Made by a program: the position numbers and the translations under genes. The notes below the pieces were generated by a model. That model was not told the origin of the DNA. It searched no databases and saw only the letters and a list, made by a program, of their open reading frames with translations. From Laetmonice hystrix (Eukaryota), in the NCBI GenBank assembly GCA_965235115.1, contig OZ249436.1:1366001-1430000 (forward strand): a stretch of DNA of 64,000 bases, in the 5' to 3' direction. Below are positions 35,164 to 59,794 of the stretch, piece by piece; positions within the stretch are counted from its first letter, which is position 1; each line of letters opens with the position of its first letter.

Positions 35164-35657
35164 CTCAAGGCCTTAACTTCATCATAACGACCCCCTACAT
35201 GTTTATATCTCGATCCTGTACGATCCCCCCATCCATCACATGAGGTAAATCATGTTAAGGTAGGCTACATGACTTGAATCCCGATAGCGACAGACATGAC
35301 CTAAATACGTTCATGTATACTTGACGTAAATTATTGGTAAGGATTATGAAGATTTTTTCGATTATGATGTAGGAAACTCTGATAACATATAATATATGTA
35401 ATGTCAGCCATTCCGATGTTTTCGAAGTGGAAGGTACATGCATGCTAACACCTGGAGAGCTACTAGAATTACGTATATCCAATTTAAAGTGATTTAAAAC
35501 GTAATAATTCCATTCCATGACGTTCCATGACGTACTTCCTCCTATGGAAAGTCAGGATTTCCCCCCATGGTAGGACAACAGCCGATCCTAACGACCTGGG
35601 ACTAGGTCACCTAATGATAAAGCAATCTTTTATTCAGTTAATAATTTAGTGATGTTA

Positions 35658-35902
35658 TCAGTTAGCGGCCTCTGTCGCCTTCTCCACGTCCTTGTCCTCC
35701 TTGCCTGGCACGGTGCCGTACGTTTTCCCGGTGTTGTTAACGGTGTCCGTCTCTCCGTGACCGGCGCCGTCCTCCGACTGTTCGGGGTCTGGGTGGGAAC
35801 CGATCACCCAGCGCATGAAACGGTACGGGACTCTGGCCAGCCCACACGTTAACTCTGTCACGACGGTCAGGCATGGCGCCAGACATGGGCAGCAACATTT
35901 AC
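35658..35902 (-). CDS. Cys-rich membrane protein (TAXIMIN-like), terminal exon; total 157 aa
   Basis: Acceptor tgttgtgttgtctcag|GT, CKCCCPCLAPCLTVVTELTCGLARVPYRFMRWVIG...EAAN*. AATAAA on minus strand at 35629-35634. Confidence 0.8.
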
Positions 35903-36310
35903 CTGAGACAACACAACAAACAAAACATCGTTAAATAACGACCGGAGAAAACGGCAGTCTGGCCAGTCCACACGTTAACTCTGTCACGACTGTCAGGCAT
36001 GGCGCCAGACATGGGCAGCAACATTTACCTGAGACAACACAACAAAACATCGTTAAATAACGACCCGAGAAAACGGGAGTCTGGCCAGTCCACACGTTAA
36101 CTCTGTCACGACTGTCAGGCATGGCGCCAGACATGGGCAGCAACATTTACCTGAGACAACAAACAAAACATCGTTAAATAACGACCCGAGAAAACGGGAG
36201 TCTGGCCAGTCCACACGTTAACTCTGTCACGACCGTCAGGCATGGCGCCAGACATGGGCAGCAACATTTACCTGAGACAACACAACAAACAAAACATCGT
36301 TAAATAACCA
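35828..36310 (-). repeat. Four ~121-126-bp tandem copies of an intron end plus exon start
   Basis: Acceptor ttgtctcag|GTAAATG with exon starts at 35902, 36028, 36150 and 36271. Confidence 0.93.
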
Positions 36311-37092
36311 CCGGACAATTGGCCTGGCATAGCGCGGTATACACGCAGTTGTAGTAGGCCCATACGGACCTATAATAATGGCGCCTATAGTGCTGACTCG
36401 GCTGACGTTATTGACCAGCATAGCTTACATTTTGTGGGAGAAAACCAGGGAGCCTAACGGGTAATATGAGTGGGTGTGTGTGTGGGGGGGGGGGCAGGTT
36501 ATAAAGGTTATGCATGTAGTACATTGACTGGTCCATCAGGCCTACATCGAGGCCATATGTTTGCCAGGCGCGGATCCAAAGGCTCTCTTTTTGAAGAAGT
36601 TACAACAACTATTGGTAGGCTGAGTCTAAATGCATTGAGAATTAAGAATTTCTATCTGCAGATGCCGGGAAATAGCGGGGTTTATGTTTGGGTCTTCTAA
36701 ATTCAAAGATTTATGGGGAAGGACCCCCTGCAGACCCCCCCCCCCCCTCATGTCGGGAAATATATATAACGTTGTTTGGCCAATTCTAAATTCAAAAATT
36801 ATCTAAGAGAGAACCCTTATACCCCCCCCCCCCCCGGCGCATGCATGATCGCCTGGTGCTGTCCGTGCCCGAGGGCGCCCCCCCCCCTTCGTTCAGTGCT
36901 GGATCCTGTTTAGTCCTATGGATCTATAAGGCTAATAGTATGATGATCCCACCACGGCTGCTATAGACCTGACATAAAGTCTCATAATGATGATCCCACC
37001 ACGGCTGCTATAGACCTGACATGTATTTCCTGGTAGGATGAAGATGAAAATAACTGGATATCAATCATGATGTTAATAATACGAGATATGAA

Positions 37093-39123
37093 ACTTACAT
37101 GGTGTTAGAACGACTCACACAACTATAGCCACCACTCCTGTGACTACCAGGAACGGGAAGGCGAGAATCAATGTGAGACTTACATGGTGTTAGAACGACC
37201 CACACAACTATAGCCACCACTCCTGTGACTACCAGGAACGGGAAGGCGAGAATCAATGTGAGACTTACATGGTGTTAGAACGACCCACACAACTACAGCC
37301 ACCACTCCTGTGACTACCAGGAACGGGAAGGCGAGAATCAATGTGAGACTTACATGGTGTTAGAACGACCCACACAACTATAGCCACCACTCCTGTGACT
37401 ACCAGGAACGGGAAGGGGAGAATCAATGTGAGACTTACATGGTGTTAGAACGACCCACACAACTATAGCCACCACTCCTGTGACTACCAGGAACGGGAAG
37501 GCGAGAATCAATGTGAGACTCACATGGTGTTAGAACGACCCACACAACTATAGCCACCACTCCTGTGACTACCAGGAACGGGAAGGCGAGAATCAATGTG
37601 AAACTTACATGGTGTTAGAACGACCCACACAACTACAGCCACCACCCCTGTGACTACCAGGAACGGGAAGGCGAGAATCAATGTGAGACTTACATGGTGT
37701 TAGAACGACCCACACAACTATAGCCACCACTCCTGTGACTACCAGGAACGGGAAGGCGAGAATCAATGTGAGACTTACATGGTGTTAGAACGACCCACAC
37801 AACTACAGCCACCACTCCTGTGACTACCAGGAACGGGAAGGCGAGAATCAATGTGAGACTTAAATGGTGTTAGAACGACCCACACAACTACAGCCACCAC
37901 TCCTGTGACTACCAGGAACGGGAAGGCGAGAATCAATGTGAGACTTACATGGTGTTAGAACGACCCACACAACTATAGCCACCACTCCTGTGACTACCAG
38001 GAACGGGAAGGCGAGAATCAATGTGAGACTTACATGGTGTTAGAACGACCCACACAACTATAGCCACCACTCCTGTGACTACCAGGAACGCTAAGGCGAG
38101 AATCAATGTGAGACTTACATGGTGTTAGAACGACCCACACAACTATAGCCACCACTCCTGTGACTACCAGGAACGGGAAGGCGAGAATCAATGTGAGACT
38201 TACATGGTGTTAGAACGACCCACACAACTACAGCCACCACTCCTGTGACTACCAGGAACGGGAAGGCGAGAATCAATGTGAGACTTCCATGGTGTTAGAA
38301 CGACCCACACAACTATAGCCACCAGTCCTGTGACTACCAGGAACGGGAAGGCGAGAATCAATGTGAGACTTACATGGTGTTAGAACGACCCACACAACTA
38401 CAGCCACCACTCCTGTGACTACCAGGAACGGGAAGGCGAGAATCAATGTGAGACTTACATGGTGTTAGAACGACCCACACAACTACAGCCACCACCCCTG
38501 TGACTACCAGGAACGGGAAGGCGAGAATCAATGTGAGACTTACATGGTGTTAGAACGACCCACACAACTACAGCCACCACTCCTGTGACTACCAGGAACG
38601 GGAAGGCGAGAATCAATGTGAGACTTCCATGGTGTTAGAACGACCCACACAACTATAGCCACCAGTCCTGTGACTACCAGGAACGGGAAGGCGAGAATCA
38701 ATGTGAGACTTACATGGTGTTAGAACGACCCACACAACTACAGCCACCACTCCTGTGACTACCAGGAACGGGAAGGCGAGAATCAATGTGAGACTTACAT
38801 GGTGTTAGAACGACCCACACAACTACAGCCACCACTCCTGTGACTACCAGGAACGGGAAGGCGAGAATCAATGTGAGACTTACATGGTGTTAGAACGACC
38901 CACACAACTATAGCCACCACTCCTGTGACTACCAGGAACGGGAAGGCGAGAATCAATGTGAGACTTACATGGTGTTAGAACGACCCACACAACTATAGCC
39001 ACCACTCCCGTGACTACCAGGAACGGGAAGGCGAGAATCAATGTGAGACTTACATGGTGTTAGAACGACCCACACAACTATAGCCACCACTCCTGTGACT
39101 ACCAGGAACGGGAAGGCGAGAAT
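37093..39123 (-). repeat. 24 x 85-bp tandem copies of an exon end plus splice donor
   Basis: The donor site (acttac on +) recurs every 85 bp from 37093 to 39048; a few copies are mutated. Confidence 0.97.
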
Positions 39124-39215
39124 GAAGGCAAGTCCCCTGCAGAACCCGAGACAGCAGCGGGCTGTCGCACTCCTCTCCCGGCGGGCCCCCTCCTCCTTGT
39201 CATTGGCAGCCGTGT
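39054..39215 (-). CDS. Cys-rich membrane protein (TAXIMIN-like), second coding exon with transmembrane segment
   Basis: Acceptor tttcttgctgccttccctgcag|, 162 nt, phase 1-1, ...ARCCLGFCRGLAFILAFPFLVVTGVVAIVVWVVLTP, donor T|gtaagt. Confidence 0.8.
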
Positions 39216-39629
39216 CTGCAGGGAAGGCAGCAAGAAATATATGACTCTCTGAGAGCCGCCGAGAGTAAGAACGGGCCCTGGGGCAAAACATAAAATATAA
39301 CATTAACAATGAGGATTAAAATCGATTTATAATCCGCTATGTTGAAATCTATTAAGGAACCTGAGCAGATTCTATATACTGTTGGTTCCACGGTACATGA
39401 TGTGCATAATATTATCTCTTAAATTAGATCCATTTTTACACTTTACATATTTTTTAACATAAAGTACGCATCGATCTAGTAGTTTTGAACAACTTTATTC
39501 ACCAACCTTTGCAAGATACCATGCCTCGTATAGAATTAGACCCCATTACCTGTCAGAATTGGTGTACAGTTTCAGGAATGGGAGTTCTGTTGTACATGAA
39601 AAGATGTCAACGTTTAGATCTACACTCAC

Positions 39630-39696
39630 GTGTTATGCCGTCCGGGGCCGTAGTGGGTGTGTCCTCTGTCAGTGGTTTCTTATCTCCGTCAGTCAT
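39630..39696 (-). CDS. Cys-rich membrane protein (TAXIMIN-like), first coding exon
   Basis: Acceptor ttctttcag| (exon starts 39709), ATG at 39696, MTDGDKKPLTEDTPTTAPDGIT, phase-1 donor C|gtgagt. Confidence 0.7.
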
Positions 39697-39814
39697 AATG
39701 AATCCACCTCTGAAAGAATCTGTTCTCTGACAGGGTTAGAATCCGTAATGTTAACTGTTGTATACTAATGCGACATTGATATATGTTATCGTTTTATTCT
39801 TTCGTAGTTTTGTT

Positions 39815-40040
39815 TTTATTTTTGTTTTCGTTTTGGTTGTTTTTTGTTTGGTTTTTGGTTTTTCTCTCCCTAAACTTTTTCAGTCGATGAGATCCTTTGT
39901 GACTGGGTGGCTATTCATTGGGTGAACCGTCAGAATTTATTTATTTTTGTTTTTTTGTTTTTTTGTTTTGTTTTTTGTTTTTCTCTCCCTAAACTTTTCC
40001 AGCCGATGAGATCCCTTATGACTGGGAGGGTTATCATTGA
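39815..40040. repeat. Two diverged ~119-bp tandem copies
   Basis: T-rich tract plus ttctctccctaaacttt...gatgagatcc...gactggg, twice. Confidence 0.8.
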
Positions 40041-41347
40041 CATTAGAACTAGCACCTGTGTGAGCAGCTGCTAGACACACCGGTCTGATCGTGACATACC
40101 AGACTGATCCGGGGATATTTATGTCAAACTTATGTCATTGTACAATGCTGGTTCTTTGTCTCAGCTAAAAAAAACAGCTGTAATCGTTTGTAACGTTGTG
40201 TGTGTGTGCTCACCCAACAACATGAAGCATGAGAACAGCTTTTATAGAACAAAACGACGCCTCATTGTTGATCTTAAAAAAGTCGCCAATTCGTTTGTTT
40301 TCAATGCATGAAATATATTCAAAGATGGCGAATTGAAAGAGTCAAACTATTTACAATTATTAATAATATTGTATACAGATCACTGTTGGCATCGATGATT
40401 GAAACAGATTAATGTAGAATAGGTTTGTTTGTTACATCCATCATTACCGATTACATTTACGGGTTAGTATTAATGTCATTAATAATCGTTGATTGTTTAT
40501 GCCATAACTACCAACGCTCAAGGCGCGTTTATTGAAATTATAGGGAATGTAGCGTTCGTCTTTCTATTTACAATCGAGGTGCGTCGCTTCCATTAGGCCC
40601 TGTAAGCACGTGCCTACACATTTTTCCCACAAATGAAAAAATTAAAACAAAGACAAAATGCAAAACAATAAGAGGAGATGGCGGTAATAGGTCTAGGGTA
40701 TGTGTAAAATTAAGTTAAAAATAGATTCTAAAAAGTATTAGAATTTCCTTTTCCTAAACGCTCCGATCGCTGGGGTTTTTTATTGAGCCTCAAAGTCATA
40801 CCCGGGTTGACAACATGTGCCAATACCCCAGACCCCCCCCCCCCCCCCTGCAAAAAGTGCCTACACGTTTATTTCAGCCAAGCTACGCCCCTGAAATTGA
40901 AGGTTGATTCAAACAACCCTGTCGAGAACGTTATCGCTACGATCGCTTTCCCCGCCACAGTCGTGTTTTCGGTCGGCATGTTTTGATCACGCCACAGTCC
41001 ACACTTCATACCGGCACTACCATCTTGGACGTCTCAGCCATAAACAGAAGCACAATACGGAAAAAGTAAAATTCAGTCAAACTACATATCCCCACCATGT
41101 CAACGAATGCTGTGTACTCAGGCAGTGGAGACATGTTGATGACATAACACCCGGAAACCTCGTACAACAAGACGTTCATGTCAGCGAGTCATTATTGTTC
41201 GATCGGTTTTGGTTTTATATCATGCTATCAGCACCTCATCTTTACGGCCAGTATGAACTGACGTTTAGAAATGCCAACACGGCCCCATATGACATCAAGT
41301 ACATCTCTGCATGATATCATATCAAACTCACACGTCTAAAAGCTCAC

Positions 41348-41440
41348 CTTTCAGAAACCGTTGACAGAGTCCGACATGGGGTTCCTTGGTGTCAGTACTG
41401 TGTCGTCCCGTCACAGTTCAGTCACAGGTCAAGTCTTGGT
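41348..41440 (-). other. Candidate 5'-UTR exon of the TAXIMIN-like gene (5' boundary unknown)
   Basis: Strong donor AAG|gtgagc at 41347, upstream of the acceptor at 39710. Confidence 0.35.
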
Positions 41441-42542
41441 GTTGTCGATGTGAAGGTCGCCCTTCAGGAGACCTTTAAAAGTTACGTGCCATTTTTTCCG
41501 ACACACAGTTGTGAATTTTTCATTTGTTGTGACCAATTGAAACATATGGCACCAAGTATGGATGGCCGGGCAATTATGGACTCAACCAGGCCACTGGTCG
41601 TGAGAGCAGATGTATTAAAGTCATTACCCCAGCATGCCCATCAAATTGATTTCATACATGACATTTAAACGTGGCTGCCCTGTAAATTCACATTGAGGCG
41701 TGTTGCTCTCGATGTTCACTCGCTGGGAAAGCCCTAAATAACTCAGATATGTTTTATTGAATGCCTGATGCGTGAATTAGACATGTGCATATACGAATAA
41801 CGTAGGCCTAATCTTAAACTGTCAGTGATAATTTGATCTTCGCCGTCTCTCCCTATTATATACCGTCATTTATGTGATAGGCAGGCCGAGCTCAGGGTGT
41901 CTAGTATGCCCCTTTTGTATAACAATATACCCTGTATCAGTATATATATGTCTGAAAGTCCGGGCGCAGCTGAAGTGAATGGATTATGGTTGTGTATAAT
42001 CTCGTATCCCATAGATCCCACAAGGGTTCCAAGCGCAGACATCATGTTTTTCAAGGAACACTCAAAGGTATACACTCGTTACGTAAACCCGTCGACCTGA
42101 CTGCGAGCAGCGGAGTGTTGGGCCGAGCGCCGAGCCGGCCCCGAGTGGACCCCGAGTGGGCGCCGAGTGAGCTCCGAGCGGGTCCCGAGTGGTGGGGTGG
42201 GGGATTGGATTCCAGGTAGGTGACTAAAACAGACCACCGGGGTGCCTAGAAGTGCACCGAGTGCGCCCCAGTCCCACCGAGAGTTTCACGTCGACGGTTC
42301 GCACTCGACCGACTATAAAGTAATGTTGAAATATCCATGTGTATGATCACGATATTATTGAGGTACACAGTAGTGAACACAATTATAAAAAATATTAGAG
42401 ATGTTTAAATATTTTTAATTAGAAAGCCGGTTGCCGTTGTAGGGTCAGATAAAGAAAATTAATTCCTTCTATATGATTACCGTTTAATTAGCAATAATGA
42501 GATAGATATACCCATCAATCTTAAATTCCTGCAGAAATACAC

Positions 42543-42714
42543 CCTGGTTTTTAGTTTGGAAACCGAGTTTTAAGATTCAAATCTTAAGACTGAACTCATG
42601 TTCAGCTTCTGATTGGGTTTTCAAATGAAGTCAGCCAATGAGAGACCATAACACAAGTCAGTCTTAAAATTCCAGTCTTAAGATCGGTAAAATGACGAAA
42701 TAAAAACCGGCCCC
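42543..42714. mobile_element. Harbinger-like MITE (cttaaga-rich)
   Basis: Ends ccctggttttta / taaaaaccggccc; internal similarity to 1610-1680. Confidence 0.45.
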
Positions 42715-44050
42715 ATGACGCCTTGAACGTTGTACACAGCAAGATGCCCTGCCTTCATGGCTACGGGTCGGGATCCATGGGGGTTTCTCTACACCCCTAG
42801 CTACCTATAGCTGTCACCCCTCAGGGTTGAATACTTAGACTGGACCATGGGGGCCTCCATACCCCTACCCTATACCCCTCAGGGTGGAATACTTAGACTG
42901 CACCTCTCCGTCCAGGATGTGGTGCTCATCACCATCGTGCTTGGGTCCCGTTCCCTTCCTACCGTCAATCAAACTCTGGTATCGCTTGGCCTAATTCCCA
43001 CACTGTTATAACACATTTAACCCCGACACATAACCCCCACATTCTTACCCTCCCCGGGTACTGATGTTTTATCATGCTGCCAATAGACGTGCCTTGTCTT
43101 AAACTCGGGATCCTCCGGGTCTGCCCGGGACAGGGTGCGAACACCAACCACACCTTGACCCGCCCGTGAGCAGTAACGTCATTTGGTGAACTTTCCTCGA
43201 ACCAAACGGACCTGGTGTGGGTTTAGTGAAGGCACACATCTCGGCAACTGTTGACATTATTACTGGTCTGAGGTTAGACGTGCACGGATATACCGAGAGG
43301 TCAGTGACTTCATCTTATAACACAAGTTGACCAAGATCAAAACCTTTCAAATGTTTTAAGGATTATTATAGAGAAAGTATGTCGGAAAGCGTAGTTGTTC
43401 AATGGGTGATTCTCGTTCTGATCGATATCTCAACTAAAAACATTGGGGTGTAACTGTGCAATATTAGGAGAACAGAGTGAAGCGCTCACAAGGTGGGAAG
43501 TCAGGTTCATCACTGCTCAGTGCGAATGGGTCACAGTGTGTGCCACGATTAGTGTGTGCTATTCCTGAGCACGCACTACAACAATACGACGCCATGTTAC
43601 TCAATCAAATTACATAGAACGGAAATCTCCTGAGGCGTTTTTGTATTTCTGTTGTAACAATAATGTTAGCCAGGCCCCTTTGACGGCTTATAGTAGGGGT
43701 ATATCCACCCCGTGGCCACTTTTGTAGAGTCCTGAGATTAACGTAGAAATATAAAAAGGGAGCAAACAGAAAAAAAGGAAAACAAATGCCACAGGGAGCT
43801 CGGCCCCAGTGTTTATATGTATGCTAACTTGTATACATGAGGCGGGCAAAAACCTGGGCCAGACAAAAATATATAGTAATCTACAGAACCCTCTGGGCTA
43901 GAAATATAGTCTGACACGTTTAGTGGAAGTGAATTGTGTATACAGCTCTATTCACGTTTTTATCGTCGTTGAAAATTGTTTTGTGTCTGCTAGTACCTAC
44001 AGTACTAGTGAGCTATAAATATGTATACATGTATGCGGGGGCGAACGCCA

Positions 44051-44308: not shown

Positions 44309-44611
44309 GTATTGTAACCATTTACACATGTAGGTAGCCTAGGCCTATAGCAACCAACAGAATAGTTCATCGGCTGAGGTTACTGTAGATGTTTAAATAT
44401 CACACAATACAATATTTCTTTGACCCTAGGTTACTCCACACGAGTCCATCCCTGCCCTCTCTGATCTACAGCCGAGCCTCATCGCCTCCTGGGTAACGAC
44501 TGACGCCAGCCACGTCGCGATTTCTTCCAACTCCGTCACTTTTTGTCCCTCATTCACGTGGAGATATCGTTGCCATCGCCGCGGCAGCAGGAGCGCCCCC
44601 TTGTGGACAGA

Positions 44612-45211
44612 ATGCGCGAGGCTGAGCGACGCCTTCGCAAGGAAAATGATGAGTACCTTGAGAAGATGAAGACGATCCTGACTGCCCCACGGAGGGGCGC
44701 CAGTAAGAGCTCCTACATGCCGGCTGAACTACTCGAGTTCCTCTACATCGGAAACATGGCCGAGGCTCGGAACCCACATCTGTTAAAACGTTTAAAGATT
44801 ACACACGTCTTAAACTGCGCCGGCGATCCTGACGAGGACTTCGATAGAAACAACCCGTATGACTTCGACAGGACCGGGGTGGTCGCCTACGAGGAGTTTC
44901 AAGCTCTGGACAATGATGGCTACCAGATGCTGAAACATTTCCGTAGGGCGCGTAGGTTTATTAACGAGGCTCGGGACAGCGGTGGGCGGGCACTAGTCCA
45001 TTGTCAGTTAGGGGTGAACCGTAGCGGATGTATCTGTATTGCTTACATCATGCTAGAACTCGGTATCACCCTCCTGGAGACCCTCCGGATGGTGAAACTC
45101 CACCGGCCAGTCATACTCTGTAATGAAGGCTTTCAGAAAGAACTTATAGATTTCGGTCGGGAACATGACCTCTTGTACAAGGAGGACACTCCCACGTTGT
45201 CCTTCACCTAA
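44612..45211 (+). CDS. Atypical dual-specificity protein phosphatase (DSPc domain only), ~199 aa, single coding exon
   Basis: Motifs FLYIG, ITHVLNC, acid-loop Asp (ALDN), P-loop VHCQLGVNRS (HCxxGxxRS), IAYIM, RPVILCNEGF. First ATG at 44612, in-frame stops upstream, acceptor ttctttgaccctag at 44429. Confidence 0.92.
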   Translation: MREAERRLRKENDEYLEKMKTILTAPRRGASKSSYMPAELLEFLYIGNMAEARNPHLLKRLKITHVLNCAGDPDEDFDRNNPYDFDRTGVVAYEEFQALDNDGYQMLKHFRRARRFINEARDSGGRALVHCQLGVNRSGCICIAYIMLELGITLLETLRMVKLHRPVILCNEGFQKELIDFGREHDLLYKEDTPTLSFT

Positions 45212-56729: not shown

Positions 56730-56746
56730 ATATAGCCTATACTTAC

Positions 56747-58962
56747 ATAGCCCATCCTTCACCTCGCTTGACCGCTTCCTCTAGACCTTGCTGGGCATAG
56801 CACTCGCCCGTGACGACTCGGTGTGCGAACTTTGTCACGTGGGCAAGGTCCTTGCACAGTAGCCGTTCATTGATGTCTTCCACAAACCAAGCATTCTCCA
56901 GTGAACCGGCCTGCAGGTCCCGAAGATAACTGGTCAAAGCAGCAGCCAGACGCTCCGTAGACTCACACGGCTGCGTCTTGTTGGGCGTCTTCTTTTCTTC
57001 TACAAATGTTCTCAAAACACACACAAGCCGTTCAGCTGTCTTCCCAGGTTCCCAGTGCTTTTCGCCTTTGTGACTTTCAAGTTCTTCCACAGCTGCACGT
57101 TGAAGCGACTGACAAGTGGTTCGTTCAAGTGACTGACTGGCTGAGAACATTTGGATCTGTTCCAAGATGAAGTTTATGAGACGTAGTAAACGGTCAGCAC
57201 CTTGCGTTCTCACAGTATCCACCGAACTAATCACTCCGCGCACAGACTTCCGGTCAATTAACTCTGTTTTCATTGGTCGCGTGTCAAGGAATCCCAGAAC
57301 TTCCGTGAAGACAAGGTTCAGATATGTAACCTGCCTTTCAGTAAAGTTGAATTCCGAGTCATCCTTATCAATACAAGCCTTTTGTTTGGCTATCTGACAA
57401 AACCAAAGTGATGCAAGATCGTTTTCAAAAGCAATGCTAGACTCAAGGTTAGTGTCAATGCCAATTTGAAATGTTTGTTGCTTTGAGAAACCGTGCATCC
57501 GCCTGAGACAATTCGTAAGAATATTGAAATCACTGGTGCACAGATTTAATGTCAGGCCCTTCTTCAACAGAACATTAAGTTCAGAGAAGAAATAGCTTCT
57601 CATGTGTTTCCGCTGCAAAGCTTTTAATAGACTTCTCACTATGCTGAGAACACGGACACTGACACCTGACTCGAGCCAGTCGCCGACGTCTGAATAGGTC
57701 TCCAGCTCAAATAGAAACAGCGTCTTCAAAGCATAAGAACTTATAAGATGAAGGGGACTCGAGTTTGGTTCAGAGGTTGATGGGGGGATAAGTACGTCAA
57801 AATCCGTCCCGAAATCCTTAAAAGAAGATGGGTCTGACAAAAGTCCTGTTATTATTTTAGTTATCCTCATCACTTTAGCAGGGATGCTGCAATGGTCATA
57901 ATGTGTCATCAGTTCCATCTCAGCTGTGGAGTTTGAAATACGCCACAGCGAATCCTTCGCCTCACATACGATACTTTCGTGCGGTCCAGTTCCCACGACA
58001 TAAAATCCCTTCTGAGACGCGCGGTAAAAGTTCACAGCATCGACATGAGACAACGCAATTCGGTCCGGAAAGTCGCTCCGCGTTGGCCACCCCACAAAGC
58101 CAATGCTGAGGGTGAGGTCGACAGATACGTTGTGCGACTCGGGAAGTTCCTCCGTGGGAGGGACATAGATTTCAAGTCTTACGGCTGGTCCGTCCTGTAA
58201 GACCTTGATAGAGAAATCTCTCGGCTCCGGGAACACGTCCTGCTCCGGGTCACCGATCCCGATAAATACGTGCTGCTTGGAACCAATATTAAAAATATCC
58301 GACAATGTCCCGACATCAAGGACCTTTCCTGATGCCCCTGGAAGGTCACACTCATTGACGTTTTCCATTGAAACTGGTATAGCCTTGACTACCCAGCGAA
58401 TCAGCTCAAAGAACCGCTGTCGTATTTTGTGGGGGAGCAGGCAACCATCAGCATCCATGAATTCTGACCAGTCCTTGAACAGAGACGGTCGGCTGCGTTC
58501 GTTAACTTGAACACGTGCAAAACCTGATGGAACTGTTTCCGGGTCGTCGAGAATACGACACGGGGGATTCTGGGAGCTGCCATCAAGCGCTGGGCACGAC
58601 ACCTGATTCAGTCGTATCATGAAGTCATACTCGTCCGGTCTGTTGATCTTGTAATGTTCATACGTACTTCCGGTTGGGAGGACAAACTTGGAGGCAAAAC
58701 GCGCGTCGAGTTTACCAGCTGACGTCACAAGTCGCTGTACCAGACGTTCAATGGTCGCTTCGATACTTCCTGGCACATCCATGCCCAGGAGGTTCGGCCC
58801 GCCGCCGCTAGGTGTCATGGTGCCGTAGTAACTGTTCAGTGCATGGTTACATGTTCGTTCTATGTTCGTGAAATATCGGTTTAGATATTCAAGCTCATCA
58901 TTGTCGAAGCTAAGATCGATTTCTGGCAGAACGTAACGCCTTGGGCCGTCGTTTTCTCCCAT
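56747..58962 (-). CDS. cGAS-like receptor (cGLR / Mab21-family nucleotidyltransferase), main coding exon
   Basis: 739-aa ORF with GSTYEHYKINRPDEYDFM (hGS-x-[DE]h[DE] catalytic motif), VSVDLTLSI (third acidic residue), WP, FYVV, LWRISNSTAE, ISSYALKTLFL and SYFFSELNVL, in cGAS/Mab21 order. The ORF end ATG-TAA overlaps a perfect donor (GCTAT|gtaagt, intron starts at 56746). Confidence 0.93.
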
Positions 58963-59794
58963 CTCTAGGACTAGATAATAACCTATTTAAATGAAATGAC
59001 AATCAAACCAACAGATCAAGAACTTGATATTTCAACACAGGCTGGCGCTAGAACATTTTGTGAAGTTAATTACAATAATGGCTTAACTTACAATCGAGCC
59101 TAGATTTAATGGTACGGTTGGGTAGGCCTACATTTGGTAGTCAACTGAATTCTGTTGTGCTTGGTCAGCGAAATAAGGGCCAGTCTAACAAAAGGAGGAT
59201 TTTTACTTTCTGGCAACTGGTAATAAGCATAAATCCATAGATTGGGTTAATCTCGACACTAATTACGTTCTTGCATACGGTCACATGTGTTTGTCCGAGT
59301 ATTTTAATTGTGCACAAAAACTGCGACGTCGTGTTTCTATAATTTGTCACAGAGCGCTATTACATATTATCCTCCAGTATTGAGTAGCTTTGATCTAAAT
59401 GAACTGGGCGTACCTTATTTCCAGGGAGTATAGTCCTAAGCAACGATTTCCTCTTAATGTCAACGTATGCAAGTCTTCCCAAACACAACGCAGATATTAC
59501 CTACAGTTTACACAATGTTTTAAATCGCCGCAGTGGAGCGAACAATACACGTATGTACAACCCACCTGTCGTCTAGGCACGGGCAGTTGTCCGGTTGTTC
59601 TGTACGAACAGATCGTAAGTATACTCTGATCATGACAAGAGATCCAACTGCATGGCTAACCGTGAGACACCTTACATATACAGGTAGGCCTACACCGTGT
59701 GTCTGCGTGTGTAGGCCGCACTCATCCGTGACCATGCACACTCAGCGGCTGGGGAATTTTGTTGGATCCTTTAAAAAAGTGGGTCACGCGGAGG

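Follow-up and report, generated by a model that had tools for sequence, protein, structure and literature searches.

A predicted spliced gene of the animal Laetmonice hystrix for a probable TAXIMIN-related membrane protein

A stretch of 64,000 nucleotides from the genome of Laetmonice hystrix (assembly GCA_965235115.1, contig OZ249436.1, positions 1,366,001 to 1,430,000 of the forward strand), here called the window and used for all positions below, carries on its minus strand, between 39696 and 35658, a three-exon gene for a protein of 157 residues that we consider almost certainly homologous to the TAXIMIN family, judging by sequence comparison. This family is small and little studied, its described members come from plants (Taxus TbTAX; Arabidopsis TAX1, At2g31090, and TAX2, At2g20562), and Taximin is called plant-specific in the title of Onrubia et al. 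2014. A sequence-only reading of the window had proposed a metazoan member of the family, and this proposal is now supported by a profile built from plants only, by reciprocal profiles and by profile-profile comparison. On these comparisons, the protein is a TAXIMIN homologue or variant that stands outside the published definition of TAXIMIN with respect to length, N-terminal signal, taxon and intron position.

The plant reference set was obtained by a short motif scan of metagenome contigs that gave 69 loci, 62 of which yielded a full plant protein, 27 of these being distinct (one intron was present in 57 and none in 5), and it is biased to proteins with the canonical N-terminal motif. Three of four plant proteins looked up were present in the searched collection, all three in clusters with members named 'signaling peptide TAXIMIN 1' (NCBI or UniRef). 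The profile of the 27 land-plant proteins alone gave our spliced protein a score of 40.8 bits (E 2e-5 at Z 1.84e9) over profile positions 7-74 of 77, while the reversed protein scored –8.3 bits and none of 120,000 shuffles of six kinds reached 40.8 bits (maxima of 10.4 for full shuffles, 22.6 when the hydrophobic pattern and the cysteines were kept, and 39.1 for blocks of four residues). The match is significant under shuffle control, and no known animal family fitted better, as Pfam returned no family for the exons at E ≤ 10 and caveolin was rejected (see below). In single-sequence searches, 12 of the 27 plant proteins were found at E ≤ 0.001, and the best single plant matches were mosses. 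Searches with single exons in Pfam (E ≤ 10), by word-based homologue searches and in the ESM Atlas came back empty because neither exon is significant alone (24.3 and 16.2 bits with the plant profile). When a moss TAXIMIN was searched against the 627-Mb genome, exon 3 was the first of two candidates (E 1.07). Five plant TAXIMINs matched no family of the local Pfam. Profile-profile comparisons were run between the animal set, the plant set and a third group of proteins described below. The animal and plant profiles aligned at 98.6% probability over 65 columns with a score of 77.8 (reversed 18.6; at most 42.6 in the 60 local shuffles), and the probabilities were 99.3% for animal against third group and 99.0% for third group against plant.

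The three minus-strand coding exons of 67, 162 and 245 nt join to 474 nt, that is, 157 codons and a TGA stop, and the earlier claim of three phase-compatible exons was borne out, with GT-AG borders and both introns in phase 1. The elements of the gene are as follows.

39696-39630, minus strand: exon 1 (coding), 67 nt, from sequence; the start codon and the first 22 residues of the N-tail, which is acidic and rich in Thr and Pro
39216..39629, minus strand: predicted intron 1, 414 nt, phase 1, GT-AG
39215-39054, minus strand: exon 2, 162 nt; end of the N-tail, the Cys cluster C43/C44/C48, then R49, and residues 50-77, an uncharged segment in which P58, W71 and P76 are conserved
35903..39053, minus strand: predicted intron 2, 3151 nt, phase 1, GT-AG
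35902-35658, minus strand: exon 3, 245 nt; K78, CCCPC at 79-83, helix 87-110 (E93, R100, P102, W108), acidic C-tail and stop
35709..35720, minus strand: YGTV, residues 138-141, a candidate tyrosine-based sorting signal
35629..35634, minus strand: candidate AATAAA polyadenylation signal, from sequence, 24 bases past the stop codon

The predicted introns have the donors GTGAGT and GTAAGT and pyrimidine-rich acceptors that end in CAG. At the level of sequence, the three-exon model is confirmed as real. Exons 2 and 3 are supported by homology, since a protein of the annelid Dimorphilus gyrociliatus aligns to both of them (residues 40-103 with exon 3 at 52% identity, E 1e-10 genome-wide; residues 4-44 with exon 2 at 41% identity, E 0.08). 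Exon 1, modelled from sequence signals alone, found no homology support in three out of three comparisons of the N-tail with orthologues (p 0.14-0.33 against shuffles); among phase-compatible GT(A/G)AG donors that have an ATG upstream, it is the sole candidate of more than three codons within 3.8 kb. Its ATG is preceded by an in-frame stop at a distance of 13 codons and by an acceptor-like CAG at 13 bases; a non-coding exon probably precedes exon 1, and an unspliced start at the in-frame ATG at 39303, within intron 1, is a possible alternative. Three sequencing runs over 39040-43900 covered intron 1 evenly, as expected of DNA, with no joint at this intron, and one of these three DNA runs carried a synonymous allele at 39652. 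The gene occupies a single locus in the 627-Mb genome (35 contigs); every other match is either a copy within the local repeats or a weak hit not supported by the family profiles, and two weak hits on contig C5 were rejected as paralogues, with at most 14.2 bits against any group profile.

The protein begins with 41 acidic and polar residues, followed by C43, C44, C48 and R49 and by 28 uncharged residues (50-77) that include P58 and W71. Among the 38 aligned module cores used for the tree below, R49 is conserved in 30, P58 in 35 and W71 in 32, and the uncharged run counts exactly 28 residues in all four animal-type proteins (this one and three relatives) as well as in the third-group record P0160. 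Throughout the family the helix at 87-110 has an amphipathic character (p 0.0014), and its charged positions are 93, 100, 104 and 107. In comparison with plant TAXIMIN, the whole module of 70 residues can be aligned at 31-39% identity to 12 canonical plant rows, and the two share the initial R and P, the W, C-x-C-P-C at equal spacing, and an amphipathic helix with E, K/R-x-P and W. Six conserved cysteines and three prolines have been described for plant TAXIMIN (PMC4526920); C48, C79, C81, C83, C87, P58, P82 and P102 of our protein align to the commonest plant residue in the present alignment, and the plant terminal P-C and one cluster cysteine are unmatched. The differences are considerable: the plant form has 73-75 residues and is plant-specific by publication, whereas the animal protein has 157 residues, adds an acidic N-tail of 41 residues and an acidic C-tail of 43 residues with YGT, lacks the terminal IPC, and shows a gap of three residues in helix 1 and an insertion of one residue past the cysteine cluster. 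Its hydrophobic segment is internal, starting after residue 41 and followed by the 43-residue tail, instead of forming an N-terminal signal in front of a C-terminal peptide of 46 residues. The acidic tails at both ends had already been noted on first reading, and the two named animal orthologues are acidic-tailed as well.

A mixed profile of two plant proteins and two exons was searched against 1.84 billion representatives (E ≤ 0.001) and gave 146 hits, which by their best group profile comprised 136 land-plant-like, three animal-type and seven third-group proteins, one of the seven being a Physcomitrium protein. This mapping of the taxonomic distribution, suggested by the sequence-only reading as a check, places the family in land plants, in the third group and in annelid and nemertean animals. 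The animal-type hits are Dimorphilus gyrociliatus DgyrCDS7764 (CAD5119121.1, annelid), Tubulanus polymorphus LOC141904217 (XP_074648878.1, nemertean) and record P0170, which we infer to be from an animal. All three are annotated as uncharacterised, and they resemble the L. hystrix protein in the 28-residue uncharged run, P-x-K-C, the acidic tails and YG[TS], except that the Dimorphilus protein has almost no N-tail. Their core identities to our protein are 45% (Dimorphilus), 37% (Tubulanus) and 44% (P0170); the N-tails of the animal-type proteins could not be aligned, and C-tail similarity exceeded shuffles for one of three orthologues (p 0.009). The third group, a probably algal set, was enlarged by P0177-P0184 in a further search. 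When only the three animal-type relatives made up the profile, our protein scored 78.7 bits and two of the 12 canonical plant rows reached E < 0.001, and the third-group profile scored our protein at 65.4 bits and 11 of the 12 plant rows at that threshold. In a tree of the 38 module cores, the root of which is not known, the four animal rows formed a clade (97/92) joined to the third group (98/95) and apart from land plants; they are sister to the third group, whose own clade had a support of 82/35, and not nested in it. A gap of three residues is common to the animal rows and 10 of 11 third-group rows, and a constrained tree that placed the animals with two moss rows was rejected (p-AU 0.005; this grouping was chosen after seeing the tree). 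The placement makes a spiralian the most likely host of the gene. Among further candidates, no close relative of P0142 was found in viral or prokaryotic genome contigs by a search without alignments. The module also occurs joined once to a PPR (P0039) and once to a GDSL (P0149) protein, and both cases were taken as mis-annotation.

Some findings weigh against the relationship as read here. With the plant-only profile, the three animal-type relatives stay below significance (28.7, 26.7 and 14.8 bits), and they were found with a profile containing exons of this gene, and the intron positions of this gene and of land-plant TAXIMIN genes are not the same: the plant intron is in phase 2, 11 nt past the start of the W codon, in all 57 spliced plant genes that were rebuilt, and intron 2 is in phase 1, 19 nt past it and hence 8 nt downstream. 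Convergence, by which any hydrophobic helix with a cysteine cluster would come to resemble TAXIMIN, could draw on the large bias correction of the plant-profile score (15.4 bits), on the very local shuffles that came close to the real score and on the non-significance of each exon alone. It is nevertheless very improbable and already largely refuted, given that shuffles keeping the hydrophobic pattern and the cysteines stayed far lower, that the W-to-CPC spacing and the R, P, W, C, P, C, L, P and W positions are common to the three groups, that the third group bridges both sides with its profile and that all 146 library hits fall into the three groups. Concerning its history, we find it reasonably likely that the single-copy gene was inherited vertically from ancient times and lost elsewhere. 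A horizontal transfer from an alga-like eukaryote to an early spiralian, compatible with any membrane topology, appears rather unlikely; it would fit the small number of animal-type hits (3 of 146, both named ones spiralian), the grouping of the animal rows with the third group, including the shared gap, and the missing land-plant intron position, but the sister position and the weak support of the third group show neither way, and other animals are easily missed when the animal hits are near the search threshold (36-46 bits with a cut at about 35.5, in one search round). Contamination or a recent transfer from a land plant, to which the best single matches in mosses might point, has a negligible probability: the minisatellites at the exon edges of the gene resemble arrays elsewhere in the window, intron 1 and exon 1 are covered as deeply as their flanks in all three DNA runs, with allelic differences, orthologues exist in two other named animals, and the tree uniting animals with mosses was rejected.

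Six third-group clusters in total contain predicted proteins in which the module ends a BROX-like protein; their Ala/Gly-rich sequence style suggests that these records come from green algae. Records P0160 and P0175, from one cluster, are 547-602 residues long and combine a BRO1 domain (E 4e-25 and 3e-24) with the module at the C-terminus; all five PDB matches of the BRO1 part are human BROX, and P0160 has no terminal CAAX box. In five more clusters (P0178-P0182, five of the 11 other proteins tested) the C-terminal stretch of BRO1 directly precedes the module. The fusions share with our protein an internal module with the animal-type gap and the form P-L-K-C-C-C-P-C, and differ from it in that the L. 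hystrix gene is free-standing and lacks a BRO1 part. A title cited in PMC6141507 gives human BROX as farnesylated, and for Arabidopsis BRAF S-acylation is described as the means of plasma-membrane targeting (PMC6141507, PMC11374797), so that the module occupies the place of the lipid anchor in these relatives. By analogy, the animal protein might have a link to endosomal traffic or to the endosomal sorting complexes required for transport (ESCRT), which we put forward tentatively. That the gene is the end of a BROX gene was rejected, as the BRO1 matches are on other contigs (C3, C7, C21, C29); the 140 other frames of at least 62 residues between 14.7 and 63.4 kb, outside arrays, gave one Pfam family pair, a phosphatase, and no BRO1.

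Structure prediction, also suggested at first reading, gave a partial answer: for the Dimorphilus protein and for the moss protein, AlphaFold2 predicted two long helices with a break at the Cys-Pro cluster (helix-turn-helix), at low global confidence (pTM 0.45 and 0.42). Solved structures searched by sequence gave no match (best E 0.48 and 0.12), and the fold search returned no match with Foldseek and only unrelated generic helical hairpins with VIA-align (best Z 6.6). Caveolins are small palmitoylated proteins with a long hydrophobic segment, cytosolic ends and an amphipathic C-terminal helix. The pattern R-x8-P...W...PC, which we took to be reminiscent of them, prompted a comparison, and homology was then rejected: profile-profile values against 15 caveolins of this genome, a low-diversity set, were 0.07-0.23% and within the range of shuffles, and 12 family members and the exons had no PF01146 hit at E ≤ 10. 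No caveolin was among the 50 fold-match rows of VIA-align. Caveolins are thus a functional analogue by these general features only, with no sequence relation, and our protein has neither their signature nor their scaffolding region. The genome itself contains at least 23 near-identical caveolin matches (contigs C1, C2, C13, C18, C20 and C30), nine of them clustered at C1:26.78-26.85 Mb, several at a spacing of about 4.1 kb, and this clustering of near-identical matches points to a recent caveolin expansion.

We favour a reading of the 70-residue module, based on these comparisons, as a membrane-anchoring unit and not as a signal peptide with a secreted peptide. Plant TAXIMIN has been published as a signal peptide followed by a very hydrophobic mature peptide of 46 residues; TAX1-Venus was located at the cell membrane, both this localisation and the phenotype were lost when the N-terminal segment was removed, double mutants looked normal and no receptor was known according to the same study (PMC4526920). 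The localisation, removal and mutant data also fit an uncleaved anchor. The segment that corresponds to the signal peptide is preceded by 41 residues in our protein, by about 50-60 in P0170 and in Tubulanus, and by about 450 in P0160. Since it lies internally in the animal proteins and in the BROX fusions, these forms cannot have an N-terminal signal that is cleaved off. The animal protein is very probably an uncleaved membrane protein, its cysteine clusters are likely S-acylated (palmitoylated), and both of its tails probably face the cytosol. The complete picture, in which a Pro-kinked hairpin is flanked by acylated cysteines and combined with a surface helix, cytosolic tails and traffic between plasma membrane and endosome, is one towards which we lean by a small degree. 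The protein would enter the membrane of the endoplasmic reticulum without cleavage, its hydrophobic segment would lie in the bilayer as a Pro-kinked hairpin, both cysteine clusters and both tails would face the cytosol with the cysteines S-acylated, and the second helix would lie flat on the cytosolic leaflet; the YG[TS] tail could then sort the protein between plasma membrane and endosomes, where it may mark or shape membrane patches serving ESCRT-type traffic. YG[TS] is present in the C-tail of all four animal-type proteins, and YGSI is reported as a lysosomal signal in SLC11A1 (PMC12247208). Separately, the third-group member P0124 has YGTL in its N-tail, reminiscent of the animal motif.

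Several points weigh against this picture. The residue after YG[TS] is bulky only in L. hystrix (V; K, T and G in the others), so YG[TS] is not a conserved YxxPhi signal, and the BRO1 genes of the animal are on contigs other than that of our gene. Short hydrophobic proteins are often missed in S-acyl proteomes. The terms At2g31090, At2g20562 and 'taximin' do not occur in two supplementary files of an Arabidopsis S-acyl proteome (PMC12236689), an absence that tells mildly against acylation. According to a review (PMC6273650), treating Taxus cells with synthetic Taximin regulated their taxane synthesis, as a secreted signal would, and the uncharged segment of 28 residues also fits one tilted transmembrane pass. 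The main rival, which we hold to be unlikely, builds on these last observations and regards the protein as a single-pass family member (N-in, C-out) with extracellular disulfides between the cysteines, the outer part of which may be shed as a TAXIMIN-like ligand. The charges within 15 residues of the hydrophobic segment agree with it in the four animal-type proteins (+2 to +4 before, 0 to +1 after), as do the requirement of the N-terminal segment for plant function and a single N-glycosylation sequon at N132. However, this sequon is not found in the other three animal-type proteins, the YG[TS] of all four C-tails suits the cytosol, the plant 'mature peptide' retains half of the hydrophobic segment and the entire amphipathic helix, and loss of the N-terminal segment would disable a membrane anchor too. 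Improbable to a further degree is a two-pass hairpin in which helix 1 runs outward, the Cys-Pro cluster forms the outer turn, helix 2 leads back and the tails are cytosolic. The helix-turn-helix models of the Dimorphilus and moss proteins and the basic residues R100, R104 and R107 following helix 2 are in line with it. The charges at positions 93 (68% of the 38 rows) and 100 (79%), on one face of helix 2, are not, and helix 2 is on average about half as hydrophobic as helix 1 (0.47 vs. 0.92).

At the level of DNA, both edges of intron 2 are built into minisatellites.

37089..39123, minus strand: tandem array of 85 bp x 24, copies of the 3' part of exon 2 with the donor; the first unit is the real exon end
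35825..36312, minus strand: array of 121 bp x 4, copies of the acceptor together with ~70 nt from the start of exon 3

The donor GT is preserved in 21 of the 24 units of the 85-bp array, and three extra copies of the acceptor and exon-3 start lie inside intron 2; the decoy exon-3 starts at 36271, 36150 and 36028 keep the frame and would give products of 108 residues that lack the conserved W108 and the tail. The full protein requires use of the last acceptor, and the Dimorphilus orthologue aligns to exon 3 through the tail. The 'mirage' minisatellites of amphioxus are likewise tandem copies of exon-intron boundaries, on donor and acceptor sides, and are described as boundary-spanning arrays that leave splicing undisturbed there (PMC3087553); here both ends of one intron are affected, and the likeness concerns the DNA of the gene and not the protein. 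Across the whole window, more than 20 long minisatellite arrays occur, each with private units. Upstream of the gene are two dispersed repeats (40500-41000 and 42460-42790), the latter with a summed contig depth thousands-fold above its flanks, and just upstream of exon 1 (39850-40040) a stretch of ~70 bases is present twice with A-rich repeats after each copy.

Among neighbouring genes, a single frame of 235 residues at 44504-45208 on the plus strand has a dual-specificity phosphatase domain (Pfam E 2e-28; best PDB match DUSP26) with an intact HCxxGxxRS catalytic motif, and stands head to head with the TAXIMIN-like gene at a distance of 4.8 kb. On the minus strand, an uninterrupted frame of 747 residues at 56743-58986 contains Mab-21 nucleotidyltransferase and Mab-21_C domains and a long C-terminal part, and is a candidate cGAS-like receptor.

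The literature found under 'taximin' deals with plant topics throughout, judged by titles and the beginnings of abstracts, in which no animal or BROX-fused members are reported; neither of the two named animal genes is mentioned in the literature searched, and nothing relevant on Taximin as a membrane anchor stood among the papers listed. A precomputed PF28483 label was attached to three of 11 hits, namely the Dimorphilus protein and two third-group proteins; this label, absent from the local Pfam, may be the TAXIMIN model, in which case the animal link would already be implicit in databases, which limits the surprise. IPR055283 and PTHR33834 are presumably the InterPro and PANTHER identifiers of TAXIMIN, and no mention of these three identifiers was found in the literature searched.

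The relation to TAXIMIN offers a name for uncharacterised annelid and nemertean genes, and the fusions give the first functional lead for the family, towards ESCRT and BROX. The occurrence of the module outside land plants, in forms unable to use a cleaved N-terminal signal, questions the secretion model of the plant proteins. In the broadest reading, which is speculative and which we consider doubtful, TAXIMIN would not be a family of plant peptide hormones but an old eukaryotic membrane-anchoring hairpin module that works with ESCRT and occurs in land plants, an alga-like group and spiralian animals, replacing a lipid anchor where it is fused to BROX in one lineage, free with a tyrosine sorting tail in animals and bare in plants. 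If this were true, the organ fusion caused by TAX1 overexpression would result from disturbed membrane traffic and not from ectopic receptor activation.

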